Below are positions 5,657 through 61,250 of a stretch of DNA of 64,000 nucleotides, piece by piece. The position numbers and the translations under genes are program-made. The stretch lies in assembly GCA_051294905.1 (NCBI GenBank), contig CM119372.1, positions 18,230,001-18,294,000 on the forward strand, written 5' to 3'. The notes beneath the pieces were generated by a model that saw only the letters and a program-made list of their open reading frames with translations, had not been told where the DNA came from and made no database searches. Source of the stretch: Botryllus schlosseri (taxonomy: Eukaryota). Numbering within the stretch: position 1 is the stretch's first letter; every line of letters begins with the position of its first letter.

Positions 5657-6181
5657 TTATCTGGAGTCGTTATGTGGGAGTAGCGACATCCATGCATCGT
5701 GACTGAAAGACTGATCGCAATCATTTCGAGCACCGTACTTCGATAGTTCACATTGGTCAAACGCTGTAGCCTCAGCGGAAAACTTCGGTCTCGACAACAC
5801 GCTGGATATTGACCGATGTATCCAATTGATCTGGGTGGTCTGTCTGGAGATAGGGTCATGACTATCTTGTAATGTTACAACGCGATAAAACCATCGACTA
5901 AACCAGTGAACGGTGTCGAAATATCGATGTAATAGCGCAGACTCAGAGTCATTGCAATGTGGCTTATTGGTATTGTTATCGGGTGACATTCGATCTACAT
6001 CAAAACTATCGACTATGATAATGTCTGTGGATCGATGTTTGTATACCAACGCATTGCATGCAATGTCACACACCTCCATTTGCGCGTATACTGGTGTGGG
6101 CAAACAAGCGCGACGTATGTCTGGATGGTATTTTTTCGTGGAAACACAGGGTGTGACATGTTTACTTTGAATATTGTTCAT
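5657..6181 (-). CDS. Hypothetical 174-aa ORF starting in the right arm and running into the spacer
   Basis: ATG-initiated and the longest ORF in the palindrome. No recognisable domain. The mirrored left-arm copy (4767-5015) stops just after the junction. Confidence 0.25.
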   Translation of the reverse strand: MNNIQSKHVTPCVSTKKYHPDIRRACLPTPVYAQMEVCDIACNALVYKHRSTDIIIVDSFDVDRMSPDNNTNKPHCNDSESALLHRYFDTVHWFSRWFYRVVTLQDSHDPISRQTTQINWIHRSISSVLSRPKFSAEATAFDQCELSKYGARNDCDQSFSHDAWMSLLPHNDSR

Positions 6182-34530: not shown

Positions 34531-34809
34531 TATTTTGAGGCTGAAGCAATTTCAGCATTTCAAAATGCTTTACTTGACGTTCTTCCGAAATCTGAAAACA
34601 GATCACGGGCTGCAAAATACGACCTCGCACTCGCGGGCCGCGTGTTGGTAATCCCTGATCTAGACTTATACGTTTCGTCGATCTCAGTGGATACATAATA
34701 TAATATATCATAATATCATTCTGCCGTAATTAAAACCAACAGCTATTCTATATATACATTCTTGATAACCGTTTCTGGGTTCTGGTTTACCAAAGTCCCA
34801 ATCGCCAGC

Positions 34810-36198
34810 ATGGGGTGGCAAATATTTAGATCTGCATTTCGTCGATGTCAATGGAGACTTTACGCTGCTTCGATTGGATTGACTCTGGTTTTGGCTCCTC
34901 AATATAATTTGATCAGTTTACAGACAAGCATCGGAGTACAAAACGCGCTCGGGTCGACCAGTGTCATGGTGTATGCGATACTATGTGTTGTGACACTGTT
35001 GTTATATGTCCCGTTATTGGCGATATTCGGTCGAAAATATTGTTTGATCGCGGGCGAAATTCCGTCATTAATTTTCACGCTGTCGTTTTTCTATCCTCGA
35101 CCATGGAGCGTTACAATAGCAGGCGCGCTGATAGGAATTGGAGAAAGTATTATCATGCCTGCTTCATCAGTGATCATTGCGTCTTTGAATGAATATGATC
35201 ATCAGGAGAACGAAACGAGAAACGTGAACATGAGAATTCTGTTGGTTATACGGGCAGTCGGCCAAGCCATAGCAAGCATAGTGCCTAACTTCATTCTGAA
35301 AGATAGCGGTGGCCAATTAAAGAATACATCGTCTTCCTCTGGAGCGCATGATTTTGTACGCATTTCCGATTGTGGTGCCAATGATTGCCCCATGGAATAC
35401 GCGTTTCAGCAGAAGTCGAGTATTTTCGGAAAGTTGATACCAACAGCGACGTCGTTGCATATTTACTTGATTGTCATGGCGGTCGCACAGATTCTAGGAA
35501 TTCTCCTGCACATCATTTCAATTCCACAGGATGCAAATCACTTTGGTAGTGACGAGGAAAGACAATCCATGCTATCCCTGACAGAGAATAAAGCATTGAA
35601 AAAGTTAAAAGAAGCTTTTTGGAGATTGACTCAACACATGAAGTCAACGCTGCGTTGGATAACTATTCCGCTCATAATCCATTACGGTTTGATTTCCAGT
35701 TTTATTTGGTCTGAAGTAAGTAGGGCTTACGTATCGTGCATTTTTGGAGTCGAAAATATCGGTGTATTCTTACTGATCACTTACAGCGCGTCAACCGCAG
35801 AAAGTGTTCTCTATAATATTTTCAATTCGTCAATTCCCACACCCATGTTATATATTCTGGCCTTGGTATTCTCGATCGCAAGTTACTGTTTGGGGCTATT
35901 ATGGGAGCCATCGTACACATCCTTGTACGTACCCTACTTGTTTGTTGTATTGGTGGGGATGGGTCATTCGCTATGTAGATTGTCTTCTTACGTGATCGCT
36001 AGCGAATATTTCGAAGACTTGGATTCATCATTCATTGTGCATACAGGATGCGCAGCGATGGGCAATGCCATAATATATATTTGGTCGAACCTCCTATGTG
36101 TTTATGTAAAACTGTACTTACTGCTCGCAATTACATTCTTTTCGACTGCTTTAGCCTTAGTTGCTCATTACTTTTTTGCCTTCCTCCAGCGGTACTGA
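34810..36198 (+). CDS. UNC93-like (MFS-fold) multi-pass membrane protein, intronless, 462 aa
   Basis: About 11-12 hydrophobic helices. Motifs SLQTSI, FGRKYCLI, CGANDCP and SRAYVSCIFGV are typical of UNC93A-like proteins. First ATG at 34810. Confidence 0.85.
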   Translation: MGWQIFRSAFRRCQWRLYAASIGLTLVLAPQYNLISLQTSIGVQNALGSTSVMVYAILCVVTLLLYVPLLAIFGRKYCLIAGEIPSLIFTLSFFYPRPWSVTIAGALIGIGESIIMPASSVIIASLNEYDHQENETRNVNMRILLVIRAVGQAIASIVPNFILKDSGGQLKNTSSSSGAHDFVRISDCGANDCPMEYAFQQKSSIFGKLIPTATSLHIYLIVMAVAQILGILLHIISIPQDANHFGSDEERQSMLSLTENKALKKLKEAFWRLTQHMKSTLRWITIPLIIHYGLISSFIWSEVSRAYVSCIFGVENIGVFLLITYSASTAESVLYNIFNSSIPTPMLYILALVFSIASYCLGLLWEPSYTSLYVPYLFVVLVGMGHSLCRLSSYVIASEYFEDLDSSFIVHTGCAAMGNAIIYIWSNLLCVYVKLYLLLAITFFSTALALVAHYFFAFLQRY

Positions 36199-37200: not shown

Positions 37201-38304
37201 CCGGGCCGTTCACTTTCTCTATGAAGTTTGACTGTCTCGGCGAGCGAGATATGTTATGTTTTGAATAACTTGGTTTACGTTATGGTAGTGCAAACACTTG
37301 ATCCGTGATGTAAGGCATCTAAAGAAATTATAAATGATTGATCGATATTATGAATTACGTATGGCTCATGTGTCTGATACGGATAAATATGTAAATCTAT
37401 TAGCTAATAAGGTGAAAGGAGCAAGGCTAAAAGCTATTCTCGGAACGAGTTGGAGCGATAATTCAGAGGTTTCAAATGTAACTTGAAGGCGAGTGTTTCG
37501 CACAGTGCAATATTTTCAATGGTGACTTTAATCTGTCTGTCACAGGAAAGACCACTATCTCAAATCACATTGATACTCAACGACACGAGAAGGGTGTTAT
37601 AATGATTAATTCAAGCCACTTGGAGGAGTTCTGGAAAAAAGTATGTAATGTGATATGACACGGCTCGTATAAATACGAAGTAGGCCTATATAGATCTTGG
37701 TAAAAATTCTTATGAGGTTGATCTAATTTTTCGATTGTCCTGATTTTTGGGTTCTATTTGGGCAACCATTCACATAAACTGAACAACCAATAGTACGACG
37801 TATGAAGTCTATTTGAATGCCAAATTACTTAGCTCAGTGGTTCTCAAACTTTTTCGATGATGATTGAAAATCTCGTTTGCAATCCCAGCGCATATAGTTT
37901 GATGGCATTCAAGGTTATGACTGTTGCGAGACCTCTCAAATGTGAAATTAGGACATTTTGTGATACGATTGTTGATATACAATGTTCTTTCCAATTCTCT
38001 ACTAGTTGCTGACGCTTACCCTTGACGAGTGTCAGCCAAAAATATTCGAGTTCATTTCAATATCAATATACTATTTAATTGGAACTTAGGACTATACACT
38101 GATCAATATTTAGCTACTGGCAGTAAATAGCGCGGAGCGAGAAAAACTTTCAGTTGAAAAATTTCTTCATAACGTTATGTTGCACAATGTACATACAGTG
38201 ACACAGACCATCAGATGCAGCGATCTTCTTGATCAATCACGCGCGACCCCATCTTACAACCTTTTTCCTATATACAAGTTGAGTATGCTGTTACCGTATA
38301 AAGG

Positions 38305-38515: not shown

Positions 38516-38649
38516 TCGAGTATGACAGGTCAGTAACAGTGGGCAGTAACAGCAAAGCAATTATGTTGCCCCTTTCTTGAAAAAGATGCTAATGTATCCA
38601 ATTCATAGCGTTCATCGTAGGGTTTGCAGGAACGCATAAAGCAGCAGAT

Positions 38650-38998
38650 TTTCCCCTCAATTTAACCTTTGACCCTAACCTACAGGGTATTAAATTTCCC
38701 TTGGAAATATAGACGATCAGATAAGCTTCAGATAAATCTAAGTGCCGTATCTCAACTGTCGTCCAACATCTAGCTACACCTTCTTGAATATTTCATTGAT
38801 AAAACCTGAGACGTGCAGACCCGAAATGAGCAGAAAAATGTCAATTTTCAAAGTGACGTAACTTTTGACCCCAAAGTCCAATTTTCATAAAATAAAGTTC
38901 ATCCTGTTTGGAATAAGCTCATCTCTGCGTGTACCAAATTTCAGGAGATTTGAAGAGGTAGTGATGTGAACATCGTTTGTCTGTGTGTGGAATGGCCC
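38650..38998. mobile_element. Solo terminal fragment of the Sola2-like TIR
   Basis: Collinear with ~31428-31776. Confidence 0.85.
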
Positions 38999-40849
38999 AA
39001 ACATCTGTTGGATAATCCCGGCTGTGCGAAAAATTATCAAGACGACAGATTTTGCATCATCGGGAGGGGCCGCACTTTCCTCTGTGTGTCTTGGAGTCGA
39101 CCTTTATCAAAATACATCAGTCCAAGCTTTTTCAACAAAAGGAGTTCGTGTACCATCTTCAAATATAGTAGATTGAACGCTCTCTTATCTGAGATCTGGT
39201 TTCATGCTGGTGACGTCATATTTCGAGATACGATTGTTGATATTCAATCTTTCCAATTTTCTACTAGTTGCTGATGATTACCCCGACGAGTGTCAGTCGA
39301 AAATATCCGGGTTTATTTCAATATGAATATACTATTCAATTCATACACAGTAAACACTTCATCATCAGTGATATTGACTGGAGAAAGGCTTGCATATTCG
39401 TGGCGCTGTTGTTGCCAGAGCACACCTTACGTCTGGCTCTCAATTGCAGACTTGAATTTGAAAGTGTGGTGCAATGCAGGATGTGAACTGTGAAGTCGTA
39501 AGATTTTGAGAGCATTTTCGATCTTATGCAGCTAACTGAGCCATAGCGGGAGCAAAGTGTTTTGTGTCTTTTATGACCTTTTCATACATCGCAAGGTTCG
39601 ACGCCTTCATATCCGTATGGACTATGGTATATATCGGGCATTATCCGAATAAAAGTTACCGTCGTGGGTTAACTGAATCGGGAATGTCGCGGTGTGGAAC
39701 GTGCGTGATCAATTGGTAAGTAGGTGACGGGAGGTGCCGGAATTTATGTACAACACAGCTCATCGAAATGAATACCCCTTTTTGTAGTTTGAATGGTAAA
39801 TAGAATTGATTTAAATCGATAGGTTGATGACAATCCACTCATACTGCACACTTCGTATGGAACAGAGTTTTGGTACAACGCAATGCGATTTTTGAGGTTG
39901 AGCAGGGGTCACCTACGCGGTGCTCGCGAGAACCAAATGAGTCACCCGCGGTCGAAGTAGCAAATATTCAAATGAGAGTGGGAGATATGAAAGTCGAAGC
40001 GGAGAAGGGTTTCATACGAACAGCAGCTGAGCATGGCTCAGTCAACCCTACGAACGCAGTTCTCGATTGGGGCGTTTCTCGCCTTCGCCTACGCCTACGC
40101 GGATGCTTAACCGGAATCTAGTTAATATACCCTATAGTCTCGACTCGACGCGGAGATATGCACTTCAGCGCGCAGTGCGGCAACGCAACTGAGAAGGGAG
40201 TTACCTATGCATTTAAACGGGCGCTGTATCGATATTTCGCTCACATACACGTTGAACTACTAAAATACGTGTGTAACTGTATACCCTCAGTCTACACCAG
40301 TGCTCTTCAACCTTTTTCGTCGTGGTACACCATTTTAACGTTTACTCAAAACTCGTACTCCGTTAACACAGACTCCGTAGTAAGCCTATTTCTGAGGTGC
40401 TCTGTTCAACCTTTTTTGCAAGTCACGGCCATATTTCGAAAACATATATAGCATAGGAACTCAGCTCAGCGCAGAGTCGTCAGGAATGATCCATCTGGAC
40501 GAAAAATACTCATGTTCAATTGGCTACTGGGAACCTCGCACAGCAGTCAGTCCTCGTGGTGTTCTGTGCCACCACTGATTTCTTGAGATATACCTTGCGT
40601 ATGAAATGTTCTAGTTGTAGGAACAGAGCATCCCCGCAGCCATTTTATATATGTACCAAAATCGCGAGTATTCATGTTAGGAAAAGTAATTTGGACCCAT
40701 CTTCTAGTCGCGCGGAGCGATAGTTTTTTTCAAACCCCCGTGAACGAATTTCGTCGATAATATTAGTAGTTTCACATATTTCTGTAAAATATTTATCATT
40801 GTCAGCCCACCTGATCAGATTAACCGGCAGAGCTGATGGAGTAGGCCAG

Positions 40850-43660: not shown

Positions 43661-45130
43661 ACTCCAAAGCCGTAATTCAGACACAAAATTGATCGGCTGG
43701 TAAATATCTGCACCGACTGTGTACCATCCAACACCACGCATATACTTTTATATATTTATAAATAATGGTCATGCCAAGTTAACAGCAACGACCGTCGAGT
43801 GTCTTAAATATTCACGAATGGAGAAGATGAATATTTCAATGAAACTTTTCTAACACGGCAAACATAATTTTTGAAATTGGCAAGGTGCATTTTAGTTGAA
43901 TGCTGTATATCATTCCATGCTGCCAATGATGCTGAAATAACTTTGAAAAGTGTAATAACAGATTCACAGTGTAGGACCTTCCAAGGCTTTATCTGGGCTC
44001 CTCATCGCTAACCTCGTTGCGATTGCAGCGTATGAAAAGCCGAGCCAAACATAGTCGGCAGTAGAGACGAAGACACAAACGCATGAAAAATGAGGGAGAC
44101 CGATGGTAAAAGAGTGCGAGTGTGAGAAGTCGCCCGGAGGATGACGAAAAGCAAAGAAAATGAATATTATACATGCTACTGTCGGTGCGCACATGATCTC
44201 CATAGGCGAGAAGTGCCGCTGTTGCGTCAATAAAACAAACAAACCTACCAAGATTTGTTTGCGAACGCGAACCTCCAAATTTCTGAGTTTCACACACTAA
44301 ACACGAACGTGAACCACATGTTCGCGTTCGCACCCTCCATAACCCCTGGTATAAGCAAGCTTCTCCTCGGCATCATTCGTACCGGTGGCTCACAATCCCT
44401 ATAACGTGGACTTTCGGTGTACACTGTACACACCGTGCAAGTGTTACGTGTGACTTTCGTTACGACAAGCATTATAGTCCTAGCAGAATTCTGTTCTATT
44501 CTCGTATAGGGTTCTATTTCTAGCTGGCCCCTAACCTTGTTCCGATATTATTTATTCATAAGTAAAATCTGTATGACGTCAGTCACACGCTGATCTTAAT
44601 ATGGGTCGTATAGCTAACACGAAGATTAGTGGGAATGACAAATCATCGGTGATAAAGTTGCACAATGGGTATAGTGTGGCAAAACAGTCACAGTTTTAAA
44701 AAGTATGTGTACTACCATGCATGTTATGTTACAGGGGCCGCCAACTAGAGGTCGACCGATATTGATTTTTACAGGCCGATACCGATACCGATATATCGGC
44801 ACACTCACAGGCCGATAACCGATATCTGAAAATATGGTTGGCGGTACTAAACTTGAGTATTGCTTTCACAACTACATTCATTGCAGTAAAGAATTTATTA
44901 ACTCGAAGACTTTTCGTGTGCCCCTTATCGAGAGTTAACGGCACAATAATAAGCATACAGAGAGAGATTCAAACGAAAACCAAAATGGCAAAGTATGACG
45001 TAATAATACAATAATAAAAAATTAACGCTAGGCAAAGTCAGCTGTACCGGTAGTCATAACAAGAGACGAGAGAAAATCAAATTATACTATAATACACGGA
45101 AGACAACACACAGACAAATAGCGGTATATA

Positions 45131-47746
45131 TTAATGGGAAATTTTGAGATTATATAGAAACTCTTTCTGCCGACATAAATCCGGATTGGTCAATTTTATT
45201 ATGGTTGACTCCAAGACAGACAGATGGAAGGCAGATCTGCATTTAGCAATCACAGTGAACATACTGTCATTGTAATGACTGGCACACACCGGGTAGTTCA
45301 TTAAATGTTGACCAATTGCAGAGTTGAACGCTGAGACCTGGTTGTAGGAAGCAGAGTCAACCGCTTCCTTACACCGACGAACAAGTGCAGATCGATCGAC
45401 AGGCTTGTTTACTGACCTAATCGATTTAGGCACATGTTGGTTCACTCGTTCAGCCAACCGCAAAGATGTGCGACCCACATACCGACTATCACAGTGGCAT
45501 TGGAATTTATATACAATATTACTTGTTTGTAAAGCAGGGAGCACATCCTTGCGAGTTTGAGGCATGAGCGGCCTAGTCATGAACACCACTCGGGTATTTA
45601 GCATAAAATAGCACGATTGCACTGCTGACCGGATTTGATTGGAAAAGCCGACCGACACTGACCCAAGCCAAGGGAGATGTATGTATACTGGGCATTTGTC
45701 TGGTCCATGAATTCGTGGCTGTTTGAATTGCGACAGTTTCTTTGTGATGGCAGATTCAATTACGTAGTCTGGATATCCATTGTCAATCAACATGGATTTG
45801 ATTTTATCAATTTCCGCCACGAGCCGAACATCAGAGCATATCATTAGCGCACGGTGAACTAATGACGAAATCAAATTTAATTTCCGTTGTTTAGGGCAAA
45901 ATGAGTCCCAGCGAATATAGTGACCGGTAAACGTTGGTTTCCTATAAACTGAAGTAATGAAACCGAGGTTGCTCTTTTCCACCAATACGTCGAGAAAGGC
46001 GAGTGAGCCGTCAGACTCTTTTTCGATGGTGAAGTTAAGCGACTCGTGCAAGTTGTTTAGAGAAGCTAAGAAAACATTGCAATCGTCTTCACTGTCGAAA
46101 ATTGCGAATGTGTCATCAACATATCTAACATACATGCGCGGTTTGATTGCATTTAAGAAAAGTTTGCTTTCTTGGAAACCAACAAATATATTTGCCAAGC
46201 TAGGCCCAAGAGGTGACCCCATTGCCAAACCATCTATTTGGAGATACATGTTGTTGTTGAAGCTAAATTCAACCGAACGGGTGGCAGTTTCAAGTAGCTC
46301 AATGAAGACATTACGCGGAAAAGGAGGTGGATGTAATGAACTATTATTATACAGCGCATCGGCACAGATATTGAATGTTTCACTCAAGGGGACATTAGTA
46401 AAGAGACTGGTGATATCAAAGGAGCTAAGGAATGAGTTCGAGGTATTTATATCAAAGTTTCTGATGTTGTCAACGAAGGTGAATGAATCAATAACGCAAT
46501 TTGAAGAGTAGAGTTTACGCACATGTTCGATTACCGTATTCAGCCATTTGGCCAAACAATGTTGCGCAGAGCCGACCATCGATAATATCGGGCGAAGCGG
46601 TGCGTTGCTCTTATGAACTTTCGGCAGTCCATACATGCGAGGTCTTTGTGAGCCAGATGGCCTCACCATCTCGTACACTTCTTTCGGTAACGCACCTTCT
46701 TTCTTTAAATCGAGTAATCTTCTCTGTAACTTTTTCTCCAATTTACCGGTTTGGTCATGTGATTCGGCGGAGCCAAGAAATTTAAATTTGTCCTCATCTT
46801 GTAGCAAGTGGTTCATTTTTAAAATGTAATCACACTTATTGAGAATAACGACTCCCGATCCTTTGTCAGGTTTCGTGATGTGGATACTTGAGTTGGAGCG
46901 TAGAGACTTAATTGCACGCCAACATTCATTGGACATGAAAAAGTCTCCAACATCCACTGGTGTTCCACAATATGCATGAGCTAGGTCACTCAATTTAGTT
47001 CGCAACGCTGAGTACTTGTCGGCATCCTGCGCATTATGATGGCGTAGTTGGCCAATAAGGACTTCAAACTCCGCAAAAATCTCTTCTCGTTTAATATTTT
47101 TAGGTGGCAAACAAAAATCCAAGCCATGGGACAGGACGAATTCCTCGGTGCTAGACAATTTATAATCGGATAGATTGAAAATAATTTTCTTGTGTACGTC
47201 CGATTTGCCGAATCGATGTCGAAATAAAAACTTTTGATTGCGGTCATACTTCGCCTGGTTTTCTTTCTCTTTCTTAGCATCAATTATTGCCATGTAACGG
47301 CAAAAGCGAATGAGGTCGAAGAGTGACAAAATTCTACAAACCTCTCGATTGAGAACACTGCGTTTCTTCTTCAGTCGTACAATTGATAGACGAAGTTTCT
47401 CAATTTCATCAAATAGAAACGCTCTTTCAATGTTAGAACTGTGTCGAGCACGAGATTTGTCAATTCTATCTCGGAGGAATCGAGGCAAGGTTCGCAAATT
47501 GATGCACTTCTTCAAAAATTCCATTGATGCACGGGATGCTCTTATTCTTCCACGGCATTTAAGTAACAGATTAAGTTTCTTAATCTGAGATGCATTGTAC
47601 CTTTTCTTCAAATACTTGAAAATATGGTTGGCGGTACTAAACTTGAGTATTGCTTTCACAACTACATTCATTGCAGTAAAGAATTTATTAACTCGAAGAC
47701 TTTTCGTGTGCCCCTTATCGAGAGTTAACGGCACAATAATAAGCAT
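45131..47746 (-). CDS. Penelope/Poseidon-type reverse transcriptase + GIY-YIG endonuclease (intact; likely true ATG at 47671, 846 aa)
   Basis: Motifs PDKGSGVV, MYGLPKVHK, LRPI, SFDITSLFTNVP, GLAMGSPLGPSLAN, RYVDD, FLDV, VYRKPTFTG, and a C-terminal NIVYKFQCHCDSRYVGRT...H...SAIGQHL. Confidence 0.97.
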   Translation of the reverse strand: MLIIVPLTLDKGHTKSLRVNKFFTAMNVVVKAILKFSTANHIFKYLKKRYNASQIKKLNLLLKCRGRIRASRASMEFLKKCINLRTLPRFLRDRIDKSRARHSSNIERAFLFDEIEKLRLSIVRLKKKRSVLNREVCRILSLFDLIRFCRYMAIIDAKKEKENQAKYDRNQKFLFRHRFGKSDVHKKIIFNLSDYKLSSTEEFVLSHGLDFCLPPKNIKREEIFAEFEVLIGQLRHHNAQDADKYSALRTKLSDLAHAYCGTPVDVGDFFMSNECWRAIKSLRSNSSIHITKPDKGSGVVILNKCDYILKMNHLLQDEDKFKFLGSAESHDQTGKLEKKLQRRLLDLKKEGALPKEVYEMVRPSGSQRPRMYGLPKVHKSNAPLRPILSMVGSAQHCLAKWLNTVIEHVRKLYSSNCVIDSFTFVDNIRNFDINTSNSFLSSFDITSLFTNVPLSETFNICADALYNNSSLHPPPFPRNVFIELLETATRSVEFSFNNNMYLQIDGLAMGSPLGPSLANIFVGFQESKLFLNAIKPRMYVRYVDDTFAIFDSEDDCNVFLASLNNLHESLNFTIEKESDGSLAFLDVLVEKSNLGFITSVYRKPTFTGHYIRWDSFCPKQRKLNLISSLVHRALMICSDVRLVAEIDKIKSMLIDNGYPDYVIESAITKKLSQFKQPRIHGPDKCPVYIHLPWLGSVSVGFSNQIRSAVQSCYFMLNTRVVFMTRPLMPQTRKDVLPALQTSNIVYKFQCHCDSRYVGRTSLRLAERVNQHVPKSIRSVNKPVDRSALVRRCKEAVDSASYNQVSAFNSAIGQHLMNYPVCASHYNDSMFTVIAKCRSAFHLSVLESTIIKLTNPDLCRQKEFLYNLKISH
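47688..47735 (-). ncRNA. Variant-core type I hammerhead ribozyme in the Penelope pLTR (copies also at 44898-44945 minus and 49185-49232 plus)
   Basis: UGUGCC G UUAACUC [UCGAUAA] GG GGCACA C [GAAA] AGUCU UC GAGUUAA: 7-bp stem I, minimal stems II and III, 6-bp loop-II pseudoknot. Confidence 0.75.
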
Positions 47747-47920
47747 ACAGAGAGAGATTCAAACGAAAACCAAAATGGCAAAGTATGACGTAATAATACA
47801 ATAATAAAAAATTAACGCTAGGCAAAGTCAGCTGTACCGGTAGTCATAACAAGAGACGAGAGAAAATCAAATTATACTATAATACACGGAAGACAACACA
47901 CAGACAAATAGCGGTATATA

Positions 47921-48940
47921 TTAATGGGAAATTTTGAGATTATATAGAAACTCTTTCTGCCGACATAAATCCGGATTGGTCAATTTTATTATGGTTGACT
48001 CCAAGACAGACAGATGGAAGGCAGATCTGCATTTAGCAATCACAGTGAATATACTGTCATTGTAATGACTGGCACACACCGGGTAGTTCATTAAATGTTG
48101 ACCAATTGCAGAGTTGAACGCTGAGACCTGGTTGTAGGAAGCAGAGTCAACCGCTTCCTTACACCGACGAACAAGTGCAGATCGATCGACAGGCTTGTTT
48201 ACTGACCTAATCGATTTAGGCACATGTTGGTTCACTCGTTCAGCCAACCGCAAAGATGTGCGACCCACATACCGACTATCACAGTGGCATTGGAATTTAT
48301 ATACAATATTACTTGTTTGTAAAGCAGAGAGCACATCCTTGCGAGTTTGAGGCATGAGCGGCCTAGTCATGAACACCACTCGGGTATTTAGCATAAAATA
48401 GCACGATTGCACTGCTGACCGGATTTGATTGGAAAAGCCGACTGACACTGACCCAAGCCAAGGGAGATGTATGTATACAGGGCATTTGTCTGGTCCATGA
48501 ATTCGTGGCTGTTTGAATTGCGACAGTTTCTTTGTGATGGCAGATTCAATTACGTAGTCTGGATATCCATTGTCAATCAACATGGATTTGATTTTATCAA
48601 TTTCCGCCACGAGCCGAACATCAGAGCATATCATTAGCGCACGGTGAACTAATGACGAAATCAAATTTAATTTCCGTTGTTTAGGGCAAAATGAGTCCCA
48701 GCGAATATAGTGACCGGTAAACGTTGGTTTCCTATAAACTGAAGTAATGAAACCGAGGTTGCTCTTTTCCACCAATACGTCGAGAAAGGCGAGTGAGCCG
48801 TCAGACTCTTTTTCGATGGTGAAGTTAAGCGACTCGTGCAAGTTGTTTAGAGAAGCTAAGAAAACATTGCAATCGTCTTCACTGTCGAAAATTGCGAATG
48901 TGTCATCAACATATCTAACATACATGCGCGGTTTGATTGC
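47921..48940 (-). pseudogene. 5'-truncated tandem copy of the Penelope ORF
   Basis: Near-identical to 45131-46150; four substitutions were noticed. Confidence 0.95.
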
Positions 48941-51900
48941 GTTTGATTTCGTCATTAGTTCACCGTGCGCTAATGATATGCTCTGATGTTCGGCTCGTGG
49001 CGGAAATTGATAAAATCAAATCCATGTTGATTGTTGATTATAGTATAATTTGATTTTCTCTCGTCTCTTGTTATGACTACCGGTACAGCTGACTTTGCCT
49101 AGCGTTAATTTTTTATTATTGTATTATTACGTCATACTTTGCCATTTTGGTTTTCGTTTGAATCTCTCTCTGTATGCTTATTATTGTGCCGTTAACTCTC
49201 GATAAGGGGCACACGAAAAGTCTTCGAGTTAATAAATTCTTTACTGCAATGAATGTAGTTGTGAAAGCAATAACCGATATCATAGGCCGATATTATTATG
49301 GAAGGAGTAGAGAACAATTTCACCAAAAATATTATATATTAGGCAAGATGGCACTTGTTCATGCCACAGAAAGCTGAACAACAAACGACAAAGCTGATAT
49401 TGAAAAGAATTATTGCTTAATTGTGCACATTCGTTGAAAGTTGGGATAACCCAAAAAACAAAACATGATACAGAATTGCAGGTCAGTAAAGAAAAGGTAG
49501 ATTGTAATGCAGAAAGCATAGTTTCTCTGCATCCTCACCCAGTTAAATTCGTCCTGCAAGGGTAAATCTGTCATATATCACCCTTTATTTCGTCGATTTC
49601 TTGAGATTGAGAAGACGGAGCATTGAATTTCCAATAGTTTTGAATTTTTTATTAAATATAAAATATCGGCCGCAATATCGGCCTTCATAGGCCGATATCG
49701 ATAATCGGGAAAGCTCTAAATATCGGCCTCGATAATCGGCCATTTCGATAATCGGTCGAGCTCTACCGCCAACCCGTGGCCCGCGAGGCAATTTTAGAAA
49801 TTAGTTATATTATCAAAAATGGATTTCCCAGAATGTGTACTTGCTAGGTCAACCAAAAATTTGATTAGTTCTGAGCGCAACTCTTGGGATGTTGATGACT
49901 AAAATATCAGCTACAGCGCATTGGCAGATCCATCGGCCAGTCACATTTCTGGTAGATCTTCGTAAATTACAATAAAGTAGAATATTTTACGGTAGATTCC
50001 TCTACAGTAAATATTTTCTTCGCGCTTCGCGCAATATATTGTCACTCAATTTCTTGCTTTTAATATTGTTACCCCCTCCTGAAAATGAAAGAACGCCTGT
50101 TTCAGATTGAGTCTAACTATATTCGGAATTACGAGAGAAAGTGTCGTCCAACACGCAACCATGCGTTTGCGCTTGCAGAAAGACCGCCGGCGATAAAACC
50201 TATAGGCATAAAATGATTGACGCATGTTGGCCGAAGCTTTCGATATCGATATGTCCAGGCGCAGAATAGTCCTATCTTTGCAAACTGAGCCCAGCGATAT
50301 AATTGAAAATATTATTGACCGATAAACTTTGAAAAAAAAATTCGCGCTTCGCTTCGTCAGTTGCGTGTGGCCCTTTGGCCGAAAGGTTGGCCCCCTCTGT
50401 TACATTGTCTTCGTATATGTGTTCAGAGATCAAGTTTAAGGAATAAAATTAGGGAAATCATGAATAATAATCCTATTACTTTTCCATATATAATAATCGT
50501 AATCGACTATACTTCGAGATGTTGCCGTGACGGAAATCGTTTTAGTTATCGCGCGTTTCAGAAGTAATCGTAATCGCAAGCGATTATACTAAAGCGGTCA
50601 TCGTCCCACGTCAGATCACTATTACGGTTTTGGCAATTTGATGACGGTATTCACACCGCACCTTTAATGTAAAGCCGCAATTGACAGAGCGCTGTGCACT
50701 ATCTCCACGATCAAACCATGAATTCAAACTTAGTCCGCCAAATTCGTGGTTCACCAATGAATATTTTATTTGCTCAAGTATAGCCTATAATATATTCGGA
50801 TACGACTATAGTTTATGTTACCGGATCAGTCATGTCGTCGTGTGCTATCATTTGTGTATTCCTTTCTCCTGCCATGTTTCAGTTGTTGACGTCGAATCAT
50901 TAATAAGAGATGAAGATTGAAATCCGCTGTTATCGTCTGGAATCAAATGTGCTATAGCGAAACATGTTGTACATATTGGGAGAAAATTGGGTACTAGCAG
51001 CTCCACCACACAGGTTTTATTAGTAGACCCGGAATCACCGGGTCAATTTTTTTATAACAATGGCGTGACGTAACAGATTTATATAGAGTCAAAGAAATCA
51101 TAATTACAGACGAACTAACGCTGGCCGTGTTCTTTTATTGGAGGTTGTGGGAGTGAGGCAAGCAATATTCTCCCGTCTGGAGCCGTCAGTGGTGATATTG
51201 AAAATGAAGATGAAATTTATGGCATTTGAGCAGCTGTATAAATACAGCCCCACCATTGATTGTATCGAATTTATCGATATATTGTATAGTATTCATCAAA
51301 TGCGACTATTGTCACATTCAAAAATTTGACCGTTATGACCCTGTGATCCCAGAAAATTATTATCATTATGACACATTTAGAATATATACATTGTGCCTGA
51401 TTTTGCAAATCCTGCCAGGACTCACGATGACGGGCTGATGGATAACATTGAAGGTAATGAGCGAAAGTCAAACAATTACTGCGTAATGCAGCGCAGTATA
51501 TCGTTTGTCATAGATGATTTTATGTGAAATTGTTTCGTGAATGCAAGTACAGGATATGACATCATTAAGTATGATATAATTGCTCAATTAACCTATACGC
51601 AGTCATGGAAGCTATGGTGAAAGGTTCATCAACAAATCCTCCCTGGCGATGCGCACTATTCTAAGCACCGACAATCTTACATGGGTGATTAACTGATCAG
51701 GTAGTCATGGTTGTGGCTAAAATTGAAGTTACGTAGTGAATATCTAGTCATTTACAAGTAGCAATGTTTCTAGGTGCGAAATTGGAGGGTGCAGTTTCGA
51801 GACTAAAGCGAAAAGACTAATGACACGATAGATTGTTGCAACTTTTAAAAATATTATATTACTCTCATAAAGTACTTATGGTAACCAATACTAAAACTAC

Positions 51901-54546
51901 TTTCTATATATTGATGTCCAAAGTTTAAAATCTAAGTAGCCAAAATACATAACCACTTGAGTAAGTATTGCAAGTAAAGGAAGCAGACTGAGTAATCCGA
52001 CGTAGTAGAAGTAGCTCCTTAGATGTTATTACATATATATATTAGGCCTATATATATATGGGGTGATGCACTTTCATTTTAAACATAATCTCATAGTTGA
52101 AACAATATTATAGATAGGGATCAATCGTATCATCTGATAGCACGATTAGCCACCAAATACCAGTTATAATTTTATTTGTGTTGACCATAGAGACGAAAAA
52201 GCAGTTTGTGATTTTCGTTTCACTAAATATCCCCATATTATAATAACCTTACATGGTCAAACCCATACCAACCAAATCTAACGAACTATTTCCCATATCC
52301 ATGTTGCACATGGGGTAGCCGTAGAGGTGGCAAACACACGAACGACGGTCACTCGCGCAGTGCATACACGGAGGAGATGTGATTCTTTCGTCAATATCTC
52401 ATAGGTAGGGGTTTTTTTACCTAAAAAAAGAAAAAATTTGACCTAACAAATCAAAATTTTGACTTATTTTTGACCTAACCAAACTGAATTTTGACTAAAT
52501 TTTGACCTAACGTATGCAAATTAGGTGTTTTCCCACATAATGTTAAAATTGTACCACTTATCTTCATTTCTGGTTGGAACTGACTGTCCTAACGAAGCAG
52601 TTTAGCCTGAAAAAATTTTACAGTGCAACGAGAGATACTTTTTTACATTATTGGGTATGAAGTGCATGCCCTTACTAAGAAGCCTGCCAAGGACGTTCAA
52701 CAGCAGCAGTTGTTGGCCGACAGCACTCAAGTTGTGCGTACACTGCTGGTGACACACCGTGTTGCTCCATTCTGACAATGTTGTCAACATCACATTTTTT
52801 CATCATGCGATTCTTAATATAAAACGATGCACTGCCCAAGAAGTCTTTTTTCAGTTAGGATATTGTGGTACGTTAACCATAACACCATGTCTACTTATTT
52901 GTTTTATTTGACCGTTTATGATTCACAATAAGCAGACAATTGGCCGCTTACAACGGTAGGCCTATAAAATAGACTACAAGCAGTAAAATATCAAACAATA
53001 AGTTCACCGACAGTGCAAAATCTACGGTACAAACGAAATGCAGACGTCAAAAAATTTTGACTTCATGAAAAATTTTCACAAATTTTGACCTAACGCTACA
53101 ATTTTGGCAAACTTTTGACAAATTTTGACATGTCAAAATAAAACGCCTTACTGGTAGGCATTTGTGAAATCTCGCAGTCATCTGAAGTGTGTAAATGCAT
53201 ATTATGCGCCTCATAAAACTTGAAACCCGCAACTTTAGTCGGGCTGTATGCCCGAGCAAGAACTACGAATCGTATCTTGACGACGGAAGTATACATGGGG
53301 AAAATGCGTAATTACACGTTTTTTCAGTTTCGGTTTATTAGCAATTTTTATCCGTACAATACACCACAAAAATGCGATACAAGGAAAAGATGGAAAGGTG
53401 TCGAAACGACTTGGAGTAGTCTTTGGAATCAGACACCCGCCTAGGCGTAGGGCTAGGCGATATAAAGAGAAGGCATGTACACTGAATTAAAAGTAAAAGA
53501 AGATAGTATAATAAAAGCAAGCGAAAAAAAAGATGGGGTGGCATGCCACGAGAGGCGAGAACGATGGGTCAGGTCGTAGTCAGGTAATTTTGAGGCCGTA
53601 CAAGTATTTATTTAGCAGAAATTGCTTGTATTTCGACCTGAATGTGGACATGCTCGTCGACTGTCGGATGGCCTGAGGGATACTGTTCCACACGTCAGGT
53701 CCGCAATAGAATATTCATCGCAATACATTTCGTTATTCCTTTTATATTCATCTAACTTTTCGATTGACTCTCGTCGGGAATAATCGTCAATACCGCGGTA
53801 AATACAAACGCAGTAGTATGATGGAAATGACAATTTGTACCAAATTTATAGTATTTGTATATACCTTTGTATTGACTATTCTTCCTGTCAAGAGTCAATC
53901 GGAAAGATTTGAAGAATGTAAAGGAATAAAGAAATTTATTGCGATGAACAGTCCATTAAGTGTAATTTTCAAGCTCTGTACCACGAGCCATTTAGCCAAA
54001 ACGCGCAATGCAATATGAAAAATCTTCAAATAGGTAAAACATCGAGATTTCATTCAAACGCAATCTCAGAAACAACTGCGGAATTTGATCGGTCAAGTGC
54101 TATTATGTCAATGCCGAGAGATTGAAAGAACGCGACGCGTGGATATGAATTATTTACCGAGTGGGATTGAAAGGAGGCAAGAACAATCAGTAAATGACAC
54201 TTTGTCCAGAAATACATTCCTGCCTTGTCGCAATACTCGATACGGGAATACCTTAAACGTTGAATTATTTCAAACTCGGACGCAAAACGAATCATTTAGC
54301 GAGACAAGTCAAAGGCGCATAGCGAATATTTTCCACCGAGCGCAGTTTTCTGCGTCATTACGTTCACGCTGATTTCATTATCCTTTGCGGAAATGTCCCC
54401 AGAGGGATTGCCAGTCAATTAATTATTCATTTACGTAGAGAGAAATACTTTTTCGAGACCTTGATAAAGCCGCTCTCTTCGCGATGCCTTTACTTTTGCG
54501 AAAGCACCGGTTCTGGTAACACGTCGTGAGTAATTCGCCCGCTATT

Positions 54547-56473
54547 ATGAGTCCTGGGGAAATGACAAATTTAGAGGAGCCCGATTTAAGACTACGGGAA
54601 TGCAAGCGATTGTTTGATTCGTTCGACATTAACAAAAAAGGTGTCATCGAGCTGCAGGTATTTGCTGCGATTTTGACATGATATCGACATTTTGACTAAT
54701 AATATATCTTTTACATTGAAAGGCACTGGGAGATATGCTCAGAACGATTGGAATTGAAGTAGACATTGAATGCATCGAGTCGTCATGTGGAGCGAATCAA
54801 AAAGTCGACTTTCCAACAGTGCTGGATATAATAAAATCAATCGATTCAATGGTAAGTATTAAATTGCTTGTAATCGCAAGTCGCATAAAGCAGGGTTTAC
54901 ACTCGCGCTCAGAATATAAAAACGGCGTGAAACCGCGGGCCGGTCGACACATTAGACAGACAAATAGTTCTAGAAATATATGATCAGTATCAGTATCACT
55001 TTCACTAACTGACGCAGTCAGAGGCGTAGCCTGGACAATTCATTCGTTTTTGGTGCAAAGCAATAGATATTCATGACGTATAGCGTCTCTTATTTCAAAT
55101 CCCCCCGTTCCATCCTCCCTACGGCTATGGGTACATATTTTGTACCGTACACTTGAGTGACTCATCATGAATAGCGAATCCATAGCTTTTAGGATGTGGA
55201 TTGGTCGTTAAAATCATTGTATGACAAAACGTTTATTTACCATGTGGCTCCTTGCAACTTGATATGGATTTGTAATTGCCCATTTGCACCGGCATGGACG
55301 AAATTAGAAATATATTTCTCGAGACCGCCGTAGGTCGCACATCCCTGGCATAAAGTATCATCTTACCACCTGGAAAAAACTTAAAAATACATTGTAATAA
55401 CATTCCGCAATAATTAAATTTAGGAATCTCCAGAAAAGGACGCTATGAAATGCATTTTCCGGGAATTCGACAACGACGCCGACGGATACATCTCAGCGAG
55501 CGATCTCGAGAGGCTTTTGTTGAAAATCGGTGAACATACATCGGAACATGATTTACAGGTGGGTACTTTATAGTTTATAATGTGGAGCTTATTAAGTACT
55601 AACAACTGACGCAAATTGAGCTGCGTGCCAAGAATCTCCTAGAATTTTTGCTTTCTGTTTTCCAAGTAATGTAGAGAGTAGTTCTATACTTAATGTCGAT
55701 ATGTGAGACTTTCGTGACTTGGATATCATTTTCGGAGAAAATCTGCGTTCACATTTTTTTTACTTTCGGTATAGTGGGATGAAATTTAATAGAAGTGCAT
55801 AAAATTTGGCTAGAAGTATCATGTGTTGTATATGTGTAAATTATAACTACCCAAACGGATAACAGATATCAATCTCTTCGTAGACATTTTAATGACTTCC
55901 TAGCGTAAGTGTTGCAATAAAATCGAAGACGTTTCAAACGCTCAGAGACAATATTTCGGGATCGAATGTTAGTATTCTCCCTCAAACAGAAATACAACTC
56001 GTATTATGAAATCTGTTCGCGAGCTGCTGATTCCAATTAGAAAAAAAATATTGCGATTGACAGCCCTTCATATATTAGTTAGCAAGAATGCGGTAGGAAA
56101 CTCATCGGTGTTCTTTCGACAGGCAATGATAAACGAAGCAGACACTGACGGCGATGGGAAAGTGAGCTTCAACGAATTTATCCAGATCATTTCGTGCCCT
56201 AACGTCCCTTCGAAGGTAATAGGAACAGAACAAAAATCGGACTCGATTAAAGACGAAGGCACATCGAACAATATTTTCCTGGCGCCGCCGTCGCGAACAT
56301 CACCCGATGCGTCGCCGAGGATTTGCAAACGGTCCAACTCTGCAAGAAGGAGCAGAAAATATCCGTCTCCGTCTCGAAGATCTTCATACGTTTCGAAAAT
56401 GCAAGATCGGGCGTCCGAAATCAAATCGTCCATTGTTGCCAAAAGAATAATCAAAAGGAACTCGTGGAAGTAG
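54547..56473 (+). CDS. Calmodulin-like EF-hand protein with a basic Ser/Arg-rich C-terminal tail (241 aa, 4 exons)
   Basis: Exons 54547-54657, 54723-54851, 55424-55558 and 56123-56473. All introns are GT-AG, phase 0, and the joined frame is open. EF loops DINKKGVIELQA, DNDADGYISASD and DTDGDGKVSFNE; EF2 is degenerate. Confidence 0.9.
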
Positions 56474-57064: not shown

Positions 57065-58025
57065 ATGATGACTCGACTTGACTCGAGTCATTTTCTCAAA
57101 ATACGAAAATGACTCGACTCGACTCGAGTCAATCTGAGTATTGACTCGACTTGGACTCGAGTCATTGAGCATGACTCGAACCAAGTCACATCACTCGAGA
57201 CTCAGACAAAGACGATCAAGACCGACATTTCATTGTAATTTCGAAGAATAGTAGAGTAACCGTACTATTGGGATTTCGTCTTTTGGTAGTGGTACTTGAA
57301 AATGCGACCAGAAACTGTTAAAATTAAGGAAAATTAGTATATTATAAATGCGAAACATTCGATATCACCAAACAGAGTTATAAAAAGTGGGTTAAACAAG
57401 ACTTTAAAACAGGAAACCGAGCAATCAACACAATGACTTGGACTTGGACTCGAGTCATAATACCATGACTCGGACTCGACCCTCTAGCCGCTGACTTGGA
57501 ATCGGACTTGAGTTGGTGGTCAATTGCAAATCACTCGACTGGACTCGAGTCAAAACTATAAAAGTGAGATTGACTTGTGACTCGGAGCCTTGTGACTTGG
57601 TAACAACCCTGGACTCGACCCTCTGCTCGCTGACTTGGACTCGGACTTGACTCGGTGGTGAATTGAAAATGACTCGACTTGACTCGAGTCAAAACTATAA
57701 AAGTGAGATTGACTTGTGACTCGGAGCCTTGCGACTTGGTAACAACCCTGGACTCGACCCTCTGCTCGCTGACTTGGACTCGGACTTGACTCGGTGGTGA
57801 ATTGAAAATGACTCGACTTGACTCGAGTCAAAACTATAAAAGTGAGATTGACTTGTGACTCGGAGCCTTGTGACTTGGTAACAACCCTGGACTCGACCCT
57901 CTGCTCGCTGACTTGGACTCGGACTTGACTCGATGGTGAATTGAAAATGACTCGACTTGACTCGAGTCAAAACTATAAAAGTGAGATTGACTTGTGACTC
58001 GGAGCCTTGTGACCTGATTACAACC
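57065..58025. mobile_element. GACTCGAGTC-family MITE with a tandemly amplified terminal 139-bp unit
   Basis: Reverse-oriented homolog of 17260-17825. ACAACCCTG ends recur with a 139-bp period (~57611, 57750, 57889). Confidence 0.88.
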
Positions 58026-60239
58026 ACACGACACACCACGACGTATGAAGTTTCGACCAACATGAGACTCCGCGAAGTGTACTGCCGAAAACATCGTCGA
58101 CGAGAAAATCTTGGCCGAAAATGATCGCCATCTTGGCCGCAACCTTCGATATATGCACAGTATATATATAGGGATATATTCCTATGTGCTTGGGATAGCC
58201 TACCATATATTCGTGGTCCAAATTCCGGACACCTTTTAGTGTCCTCTATAGGCTAGGGTACCCGTCTAGGTTAAGTACCTACGGAGGAGTCCTGATTTCT
58301 AGTAGGCTAAACAACAAAAAACAGTAGATTATACGGCGCGGGTTTAGATTATATATTGAATTGCATTATATATTTGCATTGACGGCTACTGGCGCGAAAT
58401 TGGTCGTTACAACAGTCATGCTTCTCAATATCCTCAATAGCGATTCTCACCATCTCTAAAATGAACGATCTGGCTTCGATCCGACGCCATATCCGAAAAT
58501 TATGAATCAGGCTCTGGCCAAAAATGAAAATATCCGACCGGATATCCAACCCGGCTCCGGTCCATGTCCTGCTCTATTATCTATGCATGCATCCAACCAA
58601 CCAGAATGGACTACAGCGCTGTATTGTCGTTTATGAGGAAAAAATTAAATCATTCATTACTCGCAACGCAACAACATCTTTTTTAAATACAGTTAGAGCA
58701 ATGCAGTTTTGTGACTGTGTGTTGTTACCACCGGCGAACCAGCAGTTTGTCAGCTCGCCCCCACGAGAAAACGCTGGTTTTGACCCCCCCCCCCCCATAT
58801 GCTGATCAACACAACAGCTTCCCCAAATCCAGTTCTCCTTTTCTCCTACGGTGCATATTATCACCTCATTTAACATAAAACGTTTACAAAAATAGACGTT
58901 TTCAGTAGTGAAACAAGTCTAGCATTTAGCGATTCACAAGCAAGTCAGAATAAAGTGACGGTGAAATTTGTCTATTTATTTTATCCGCTTACTGCAGGCA
59001 TTTGGTTTCTAGTCGCGCAAGGCGCGAATATTTTTAAAGTTCATAAATAAATTCTGTCAATCATATTGGTTATTCCATATATTATACTGGTAAATTTTCA
59101 TCCTCTTTCCGTTCATGTTACCAGAATTATCGGTAGAGCTGGTGAAGGTGACGACTTTGAACATGTAAAACACGTAGTTCTATATCTTATTATCATCAAT
59201 TTTTTTGGAGGGGGGTTGCGGAGCGGCATTTACTGTCTTGATCGTAACGCCTTGTCTACAAACAGTTTGCGCCCTACTTCCACGCCTCGCAGTTTATGAA
59301 ATCCTGAACTAAAATAAGTCAAAACCTATTGTTTCGTAATCAATATCCAACACGTCACTTATACACATTGCAGACTGGTTTAAGTGGCAGCTCTCTCAAA
59401 CATTGGTGCCACGTGCCACTCCTAGTGTTTTTACACTAGATTTAGTGTGTTTGGAGTTGACCTAGTGTTTTAGTGTATTTTTTTAATCAAAATTCTGCAA
59501 ATCTAGTGTCTTTTCATAAAAAAATATATTTAAATTAAGATGTTATTTTGATGTGCTTTATATAATACATAATTCAAGAAATATTAATTATTATGCGTCT
59601 ACGCTCGCTCATTTAACAAAATAACAAACCTCATACGTAAATTGCCTTGGTGTCACCCATTTCTATCACTGGCAGAGTGAAGCTACCATAGCCTGATACA
59701 GGTTTTCAAGTTCAGAAGGAAACCGATGACAGAAGCGAATATGATAACTTGCCCAAATTTCCCGGCCAATTCATGAATGATTGCATATTCTGCGCAGCCC
59801 AGGGATATAATCAGTTATATATCCCGGGTGTTGCCAAGTATGTAAATGTCTTGGGGTACAATATTTGAATTGAAAAATGGTGTGACGTCATAATGCTAAA
59901 GTCGAATTTTGCATGGGCACTGGACAGTCATGATTGCCTATAGTGATTTGGCTTCGATGTTTTTAAGTTAGTAAAATGTCCCGGTGTAGTTTTCTTTGAT
60001 CCTTTTGACTGTGGAAAAGCTGGAAAACCACTTATTGATATGTGATTGTATGACACTCCACCAATTCTTATATCGCTCGATCGGATTCGATCGAATGTAG
60101 TGGATATTATTTATATTCACGAGATTCTGTTTTATAGTTAAGTGCCGAAAAAATTTGGATTTGCTATGGGGATATTAAAAATCATCGATATTGTCTGATA
60201 TGAAAAAAGTTGCATAAATCGTGATGAATTTGTCATTTG

Positions 60240-61250
60240 AACAAGTGATTTGTGGTACAGAACTTCAGAATAACGCGAAACAATAACTGCATATTGTTAA
60301 TTTATTCGCTAAAAGCTTTTCGACTAACTCTCATCAGTAGCGAACGTTAGTGATGGGGTGAATCAATTTCGAAATGTAAGAACTATTTTGTCTGTATGAC
60401 GTAATAATAACAAAAACAAACAACTAGTAGACGGGCAAGATACGGTAGTAACGGCACAAAACAAACGTTAACGAGTACATATTCGGTTATAAATAACCGA
60501 AAACACAACACATAACATTAATGAAATATTCCAAGAGTGTAGAGGCGTTCCTTCTGGCGACAGAGAATCGGCTTTCGCAGCTTTATGATCGTAGATTCCA
60601 GGACCTTTAAATGAAAAAGAGAACGGCCACGAGCAAGTATAGAAAATTGACTGTCATTGTAATGATCAGCACATTCTGGATGGGATAAGAGATGCTGTCC
60701 AATAGCCGAATTACAAGCAGTAACTTGATCATAATCACGCAGTGTGTCAACAGACTGCGATGAAGGAGTTGGAGAAACATTAGTTATTCTAATTTGCCGT
60801 GGGACATGCTGGCGAATTCTTTGCTGCAAGCGCTGAGACGTGCGACCTACATACCGACTGTCACATCGGCACGTGTATTCATATATATGTTGCTTTGATT
60901 TGTCGCAGGTAGCACATCCTTTTGCGTTGCAGGCATCAGAGATTTCGTCATGAAGATTATCTGAGGTTCTACTTGTGAAAAACAATGCCTCACTGACGAT
61001 TTAATTTGTTTTTCAAACCTTTTGGACACTTTCCCAATCCATGGAAGATGCAAATAAACAGGACATTTTCTAGGTCCAAACGGTTCAACTTTTCTGAAAT
61101 CTTTAAGTTTACGATCTATGGTCATTTTAATGATATGATCAGGATAACCATTTGACTGAAAGATTGACCGAATGTTCTCCAATTCAGAATCAAGTATGAC
61201 TTTACTACAAATCATCAGAGCCCTGTGTACCAGAGTACCAGAGTACCAGA
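60240..61250 (-). mobile_element. Second, divergent Penelope-like element, 5'-truncated and frameshifted
   Basis: ORFs 60847-61215 and 60518-60985 encode the RT thumb/linker and GIY-YIG (IYEYTCRCDSRYVGRT..SAIGQHL). The 3' tail carries a hammerhead and the ORF start. 8-bp TSD GTCATTTG (60232-60239, 61251-61258). Confidence 0.93.
60305..60351 (-). ncRNA. Minimal type I hammerhead ribozyme in the Penelope pLTR
   Basis: ACUAAC G UUCGCUA [CUGAUGA] GA GUUAGU C [GAAA] AGCU UU UAGCGAA: canonical core, 7-bp stem I, palindromic stem III, loop-II pseudoknot. Confidence 0.88.

Follow-up and report, generated by a model that had tools for sequence, protein, structure and literature searches.

We propose that the pseudo-LTRs of one endonuclease-bearing clade of Penelope-like retrotransposons probably carry a type I hammerhead ribozyme in which stem II is the single pair G10.1-C11.1 and is accompanied by a 6-bp pseudoknot, which is the explanation that best fits our data. 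The DNA analysed (the window, 64 kb in length) has the appearance of animal genomic DNA with several Penelope-like retrotransposons. We label the families carrying the motif E1-E4 and F4-F7, E1 being element 1 and E2 being element 2. The first-pass annotation, working from these two elements, had suggested a pseudoknotted minimal hammerhead as the architecture used by this Penelope clade, and six more families, two of them decayed copies in the window (E3 and E4) and four from a set of 104 external loci, keep the pairing with other letters. Judging from the sequences, it is very likely that the pseudoknotted structure is real and under selection. Absent from that annotation were the one-pair stem II, the palindromic stem III and the core UCGAUAA of element 1.

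The element 2 hammerhead is a minimal type I motif lying whole at 60351-60305 on the minus strand, in the pseudo-LTR of a truncated Penelope-like element. Read 5' to 3' as RNA, it begins with the pseudoknot 5' strand ACUAAC (60346-60351), which is complementary to 60323-60328 and covaries over eight families. The linker G (60345) and the stem I 5' strand UUCGCUA (60344-60338; together 60338-60345) come next, then the catalytic core CUGAUGA (C3-A9, 60331-60337) and the one-pair stem II of G10.1 (60330) and C11.1 (60322), which at 60322-60330 closes a 7-nt loop II made of A and GUUAGU (60329-60323). GUUAGU, six of the seven loop II bases, is the pseudoknot 3' strand (60328-60323). GAAA (60321-60318) and AGCUUU (60317-60312; together 60312-60321) hold the palindromic stem III AAGCUU (60318-60313) and U17 (60312), and the stem I 3' strand UAGCGAA (60305-60311) ends the motif with seven Watson-Crick pairs to 60338-60344. 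The first-pass annotation had read ACUAAC-G-stem I with loop II GUUAGU here, and our direct reading agrees. Element 2 fits the type I hammerhead core consensus (C3-U4-G5-A6-N7-G8-A9, G12-A13-A14, A15.1-U16.1, H17) everywhere. Positions follow the standard hammerhead numbering, as in the papers cited here, and this numbering places the predicted cut between 60312 and 60311. On folding, stem III of element 2 has 1 bp as a monomer and forms a 6-bp self-duplex at -4.3 kcal/mol.

Directly 3' of stem I, element 2 has UAAAUU and then an ATG at 60292, which begins a 19-codon ORF-start remnant at the end of the pseudo-LTR (60236-60292, minus strand) that is 95% identical to residues 1-19 of P0003, an intact member of the element 2 family that is itself 56% identical to the element 1 protein P0001. 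A frameshifted, 5'-truncated C-terminal ORF fragment (60521-61239, minus strand) covers the reverse transcriptase (RT) thumb and a GIY-YIG-like endonuclease region; it is 97-99% identical to P0003 and 52-57% to P0001, and its match to Pfam GIY-YIG is weak (E 0.0009, under the curated cut-off). Element 2 is a frameshifted, 5'-truncated relic spanning 61239-60236 on the minus strand.

Element 1 spans 44822-49272 and carries three pseudo-LTRs, two in direct orientation at a distance of 2,790 nt and a third that is inverted. Its intact ORF, P0001 (846 aa, 45131-47671, minus strand), encodes an RT with an identified RVT_1 domain and, at the C terminus, a GIY-YIG-like endonuclease whose residues C725, C727, H746 and H789 are invariant in an alignment of 25 sequences. 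A partial tandem copy of the ORF lies upstream (47921-48943, minus strand; residues 507-846, 99% identical). P0001 has no CX2-5CxxC linker pattern, which is present in Neptune and Nematis (PMC8557442). The missing linker, together with the RT, the endonuclease residues and the repeat layout, points to the Penelope/Poseidon group, a placement by features.

Each pseudo-LTR of element 1 carries a hammerhead, and the three copies are identical, with the motif UGUGCC-G-UUAACUC, loop G+GGCACA and GAGUUAA: one in the upstream pseudo-LTR (47688-47735, minus strand, core start 47721), which precedes the ATG of the intact ORF by 23 nt, one in the downstream pseudo-LTR (44898-44945, minus strand, core start 44931; 2,790 nt from the upstream copy) and one in the inverted pseudo-LTR (49185-49232, plus strand, core start 49199). 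The core is UCGAUAA, stem III reads AAGUCUU and the triplet is UUC; in the upstream copy the predicted cut lies after 47695 on the minus strand. Here too the reported UGUGCC-G-stem I with loop II GGCACA is what the sequence contains, now in three copies. The two elements had been described as identically spaced, and both have an 8-nt spacer and a 7-nt loop; as had been noted, they differ at four of the six pseudoknot pairs and at three of the seven in stem I, and all are Watson-Crick on direct reading. From GAAA to stem I, element 1 has a stretch of 7 nt where element 2 has 6 nt. A further claim, that UAAAUU and then the ORF start follow both motifs, stands for elements 1 and 2, with the qualification that the element 2 'ORF start' is the 19-codon remnant; the other six families have no UAAAUU at this place. 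We rejected UAAAUU as a signal of the clade, since it lies directly after stem I only in the element 1 and element 2 families among the eight.

The element 1 core combines C4 with the U3-A8 covariant, which is known from hammerhead cores (PMC4209133; PMC3088659). C occupies core position 4 in all three window copies (44930, 47720 and 49200). Sequencing-run reads, from which we read the copy-level variation of this family, have 44930 G>A in 37 of 41 reads of run X21 and in 5 of 5 of X23; C4 is a minority allele in the element 1 family, and most copies in four sequencing runs have U, as listed for 44930 and 49200. Since element 1 is nearly undiverged and its ORF intact, a ribozyme possibly weakened by C4 appears to have been no bar to recent insertion. 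In the same run X21, 16 reads cease matching at the first pseudoknot base (44945) and 12 where stem I ends (44900); we read these edges as a related subfamily having only the motif in common. A separate observation is that, in run X23, 24 reads (14 starts) skip 661 nt at 46440-47102; the skipped stretch has GT..AG borders when read on the plus strand, the antisense strand of the element, and the reads are probably a host transcript using parts of some copy of the family as exons.

Two decayed families complete the set within the window. Family E3 is represented by copy a (39270-39314, plus strand), which lies about 105 nt after a Penelope C-terminal fragment (38999-39165) and has a changed U16.1, one lost base and a pseudoknot with two G-U pairs, and by copy b (38008-38054, plus strand), whose pseudoknot GCUGAC/GUCAGC is intact and whose G12 is changed. 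Family E4 forms an inverted pair. Copy a (53745-53791, minus strand) has the pseudoknot AUUGAC/GUCAAU; copy b (53871-53917, plus strand) has a decayed core with the pseudoknot and a 7-bp stem I intact, and a Penelope-like ORF start follows at 53944, whose likeness to the other families was judged by eye, tblastn giving no match. All E3 and E4 cores are broken, and the element 1 copies in the window carry C4.

Outside the window, an alignment of 25 proteins led to 104 loci: 77 from metagenomes (best 80 of 539 confirmed) and 27 from assemblies of prokaryotes, where they are presumably stray eukaryotic contigs. Pattern searches with no pseudoknot requirement found the one-pair stem II design in E3 and in four further families: F4 (L001, L003 and L005), F5 (L004, L006, L008, L013, L019, L027, L040 and L054), F6 (L002) and F7 (L029). 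The published long-stem-II motif occurs instead in 22 loci. Ten of the motifs served to build a covariance model whose helix is the pseudoknot; applied to the window and to 99 of the 104 loci (L001-L099), it gave 25 matches below E 0.01, 17 in 15 loci and 8 in the window. New among them were L058, a 5'-cut copy in L059, E3 copy b and the inverted E4 pair, so that E3 copy b and E4 were found by a model that scores the pseudoknot helix itself. The other six matches had E values of 0.42-3.7, and one of them is a deleted remnant in L020. Rfam cmscan of the whole window to E 1 returned no hammerhead family and only a mir-2329 match under the gathering score; we read the missing hammerhead match as reflecting models that do not cover this variant. 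Protein-guided scans of viral contigs found no relatives, a stricter pattern for the same design had 0 matches in viral contigs, and a search for protein relatives of solved structure found none.

The pairing is held by compensatory change. In the larger alignment that had been suggested as a check for covariation, the best copies of the eight families (the copy having been picked in two families and the register set by hand in four) have 47 of 48 pseudoknot cells Watson-Crick, with 2-4 pair types per column and two-sided changes in all six columns. When the first E3 copy is used, seven families give 41 of 42 paired cells, 39 of them Watson-Crick, and among 5,040 whole-strand permutations only the true matching attains 41/42. 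The five families outside the first-pass annotation have 29 of 30 cells paired, a value attained by 1 of 120 permutations. Because the register was set by hand in four families, a register-free test matters: cognate strands form helices of 6, 6, 4, 6, 6, 6 and 5 bp, swapped strands 2-5 bp, with null rates of 0.002-0.14. When 10 rows were aligned blind with MAFFT, which leaves F4 and F7 partly out of register, all six pairs again had two-sided changes and the stem II G-C pair was invariant (10/10 rows). There, counting pseudoknot and stem II (stem I is out of register), 92.8% of cells are paired against 19-42% for slid partners, and 0 of 500 shuffles attain the covariation score, a count that is not a probability because the alignment rows are related. 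The 8-nt spacer is found in six of the eight families (9 and 11 nt in the other two), and the linker G in seven of the eight family representatives and also in the other copy (E4a) of the eighth. Within F5, 6 of 11 copies keep all six pairs and 5 of 11 have one pair broken (61 of 66 cells paired), as expected of decaying copies and no proof of selection.

Such evidence also bears on the reading that the helix is due to chance, or is a short inverted repeat at the DNA level that has no role in RNA. A DNA inverted repeat would give pairs that are nearly all Watson-Crick with few G-U, as seen here, and short helices do arise by chance: among 82 viral pattern matches listed, one paired 6/6 with G-U allowed. 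The chance rate of a 6-bp Watson-Crick helix with these loops is 0.28% and 0.35% over 20,000 random 17-nt windows. However, eight families place different letters at the same site in loop II, the permutation and slide controls separate the true partners from the others, and none of the at least 162 distinct viral core-pattern matches listed (82 + 80) has both a pseudoknot of at least five pairs and a stem I of at least five. We regard chance or a DNA repeat as largely refuted and its probability as very small. The long-stem-II motifs, tried as a control for loop pairing with the upstream flank, gave helices of 2-4 bp in 20 motifs from 19 loci; this control is weak because just 6 of the 20 loops reach five bases.

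The distribution over RT trees ties the motif to one lineage. In a FastTree of 103 translated loci, all pseudoknot-type loci fall in one clade (local support 1.0), and in the trees sampled such motifs occur only beside closely related reverse transcriptases. A second tree, with 121 proteins added (150 rows), places elements 1, 2, F4, F5 and F6 in a core clade (support 0.998) of 38 protein clusters, one of which has members from a jellyfish (Rhopilema esculentum). F7 (L029) lies outside it, at a joining node with support of 0.19 that has 0 of 17 long-stem loci inside, and with such support F7 may either have branched off earlier or have gained the motif separately. Both trees use pairwise projections onto P0001 and contain no named reference elements. 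L059 is the sole long-stem locus within the pseudoknot clade, and we rejected it as an exception because its long-stem motif lies in an insertion interrupting the ORF: the RT of this pseudoknot-clade element is broken at L059:2880-3150 by two long-stem-II hammerheads in inverted orientation, which belong to another Penelope family. Nine loci in the clade have no motif; seven of these stop short of the ORF end, in L025 the pseudo-LTR breaks off after about 90 nt, and L037 covers the ORF end but has no motif in the 330 nt beyond it.

From the sequences, their pairing potential and covariation, the palindromes and the link to one RT clade, we can outline a model of stacking geometry, dimer formation, cleavage, a gain in rate and a role in the processing of multimeric transcripts. 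Of the 7-nt loop II, the six bases at the 3' side would pair with the six immediately 5' of stem I, and the resulting helix most likely stacks on G10.1-C11.1, replacing stem II. The first loop base would cross the deep groove of the 6-bp helix, a crossing by one unpaired base as is usual in pseudoknots with a helix of this length. The linker G would tie the pseudoknot to the far end of stem I, with the two helices, of 7 bp and 6-7 bp, held alongside each other, and a 7-bp column beside a 6-7-bp stem I joined by one G would account for the 8-nt spacer of six of the eight families. Holding helices side by side is the job that loop-loop contacts do in extended hammerheads. Since the pseudoknot lies wholly within the enzyme strand, it could pre-fold that strand.

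Around the core, stem I has 7 bp, stem II 1 bp and stem III 1-2 bp as a monomer or 6 bp as a dimer. Stem III has 1-3 pairs within one copy and forms a palindromic duplex between two; in all six motifs folded it is palindromic, perfectly in E2, F5 and L005 and near-perfectly in E1, L001 and L029. A palindromic stem III that is unstable in one copy suggests that cleavage probably needs a dimer, and such a dimer would require two pseudo-LTR copies, as in the layout of element 1. The two pseudo-LTR copies of a tandem transcript would swap stem III strands and cut each other, from a few to about 23 nt 5' of the start codon (predicted 19 nt in element 2 and 23 nt in element 1). In L004 (F5) and L005 (F4) the start codon lies inside the stem I 3' strand, 3 nt after the predicted cut, so that folding and translation initiation would compete there. 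Two-copy folding did not recover the double hammerhead, with a program that cannot represent pseudoknots. No pile-ups of RNA read ends were seen among the 171 and 207 reads from two standard RNA runs, each sampled to 3-6%, a depth at which such pile-ups could easily be missed.

Two further readings accept the helix and differ on what it does. It could be inhibitory or regulatory, a plain hairpin around the core that competes with stem I and leaves a lone copy uncut until a partner copy or the protein of the element refolds it. The lowest-energy fold of element 1 indeed has the pseudoknot helix in place of stem I, with no coexistence of the two, unconstrained two-copy folds of E1, F4 (L001) and F5 keep it as a hairpin, and the title of one paper describes an alternative structure that attenuates a satellite RNA hammerhead. 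However, folding programs cannot represent pseudoknots and are forced to choose one helix. Moreover, the helix stops exactly at C11.1, leaving G10.1-C11.1 free, and is set by the 8-nt spacer in six of eight families, which fits a docked geometry and would be unneeded for an inhibitor; and with a one-pair stem II, the active fold requires a substitute helix. We consider an inhibitory hairpin unlikely. Rather improbable too, in our estimate, is that the folded motif is kept mainly as a signal to the element's own protein or for cap-independent translation of the ORF, with cleavage rate secondary. In its favour, an in-frame start lies from a few to about 30 nt downstream in the families translated, another Penelope hammerhead is protein-assisted in vitro (PMC11167929), and, in the 5' UTRs of fungal viruses, type I hammerheads whose helix II has 0-2 bp support the initiation of translation (PMC13725137). 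Yet the pseudoknot letters vary freely while the catalytic positions and the stem III palindrome stay, which is the pattern of a ribozyme scaffold and not of a sequence-specific site. A signalling or translational role is compatible with the pseudoknotted hammerhead, and both may hold.

The pseudoknotted hammerhead shares much with described motifs. The minimal hammerheads of metazoan Penelope-like elements (Cervera and De la Pena 2014) have the same type I topology, the same place in the pseudo-LTR by the ORF start and G10.1-C11.1 (PMC4209133; PMC6155905), and likewise a short palindromic stem III implying dimers, U3-A8 and U3-G8 variants, and U or C at position 17 (PMC4209133). Their helix II has 3-8 bp (in Fig. 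S3, none of 56 rows falls below 3) and an extra base follows A9 (PMC4209133), whereas the present motif has a 1-bp stem II, no extra base, a stem I of mostly 6-7 bp and the 6-bp pseudoknot. They cleave as dimers with low activity (PMC4209133) and usually have no tertiary interactions (PMC6155905). For another Penelope element, cleavage depended on the protein, and insertion in vitro did not require cleavage (PMC11167929).

Other hammerheads have been described in which stem II is one pair and a six-pair pseudoknot makes the contact between stem I and stem II (Perreault 2011, PMC3088659, Fig. 4). Pseudoknots were found there in all three hammerhead types, in about 40% of representatives; the natural hammerhead of this design cleaved at more than 1.2 per min, and shortening its pseudoknot cost 20- to 100-fold, with rescue by compensatory change (PMC3088659). 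A Watson-Crick helix of at least four pairs joining the stem I and stem II regions, which marks the Perreault-type pseudoknot, is present in our motif with six pairs. The example tested there is a metagenomic type II hammerhead, whereas the present motif is type I and in a retrotransposon, takes its partner strand from the 5' flank, at one base from stem I, and would have to obtain stem III from a second copy. The crystal structure PDB 8YDC (Zhan et al. 2024, PMC11300833) likewise has a 6-bp pseudoknot for helix II above G10.1-C11.1, with a sheared A9-G12 pair and helix I parallel to the pseudoknot. In that structure an additional hairpin (helix IV), joined by an A-rich linker to helix I, supplies the partner strand with its loop (PMC11300833); the linker of one base in most of our families leaves no room for such an arrangement.

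Closest in setting may be the hammerheads of Lunse, Weinberg and Breaker 2017, which are reportedly also Penelope-associated, have a short stem III and cleave as dimers. That study reportedly covers about 150,000 variants, and is said to mention pseudoknots between bases before stem I and loop II in earlier hammerheads. There is a real chance, somewhat short of even, that it already contains this class. No report of a pseudoknot in Penelope hammerheads was found in the accessible parts of the literature searched, subscription papers being mostly outside reach; the literature covered includes PMC6765202, PMC6466107, PMC10085705, PMC11167929, PMC10761166, PMC13725137 and bioRxiv 10.64898/2026.07.22.740005. 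The hammerheads of PMC8557442, in the parts available, list no such design. Each part of the motif is known; in the literature covered we found no dimer-type Penelope hammerhead that combines them.

The described lack of tertiary contacts and the slow in vitro rate of Penelope hammerheads leave their role in transposition in question. A Watson-Crick tertiary helix under compensatory change, in families as far apart as 56% in RT sequence, indicates selection on the fold, and six pairs that can be broken and restored offer an unusually clean test of cleavage and transposition. The motif would also be one of the smallest natural extended-hammerhead designs, and provides a search pattern that Rfam missed here. 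More tentatively, and with some doubt on our part, a previously undescribed clade of animal Penelope elements may have swapped stem II for a pseudoknot with its 5' flank, giving a dimer hammerhead of about 47 nt that would be fast at cellular magnesium and protein-free, unlike the slow minimal hammerheads reported. If such a fast clade exists, the class escapes Rfam models and probably helix II descriptors, and the census of retroelement hammerheads is incomplete.

Several other observations deserve mention. Naiads have been described as free of canonical hammerheads (PMC8557442). That the unexplained hammerhead cores of the Naiads in that paper share the present design gained no support from the 29 places returned for four core spellings. 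Five places in the Naiad consensus of File S5 of that paper appear by eye to be complete, non-circularly permuted hammerheads, with core, cleavage site and GAAA. Read this way, they correspond to type CSG of PMC10085705, of which two examples were reported. The five places have stems I-III and a long extra helix, which differ in letters; two of the places, named from the next header, are Naiad-2_Nbra and Naiad-3_Nbra. Titles and abstract beginnings yielded no paper linking Naiads with type CSG hammerheads.

Within the window, 47783-47798 and 60394-60409 (both minus strand) share 16 identical bases around an ACGTCA core in otherwise unalike pseudo-LTRs, 47 nt (element 1) and 42 nt (element 2) 5' of the pseudoknot strand; the shared 16-mer is possibly a promoter element. 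A similar core also lies upstream of the E3 motif. Arms of about 5 kb, with 41-nt tandem units inside, form a perfect inverted repeat (1-5008 and 5940-10946) that may be a foldback element or an assembly artefact. A second foldback structure (28629-31776), the source of the sub-threshold mir-2329 match, has internal 24-, 41- and 65-nt repeats, and its ends recur at 38647-39001, directly before the E3 Penelope fragment. Finally, host-like frames with UNC-93/MFS and EF-hand matches and a 139-nt tandem array lie at 34714-36198 (plus strand), 55973-56473 (plus strand) and 57472-58025.
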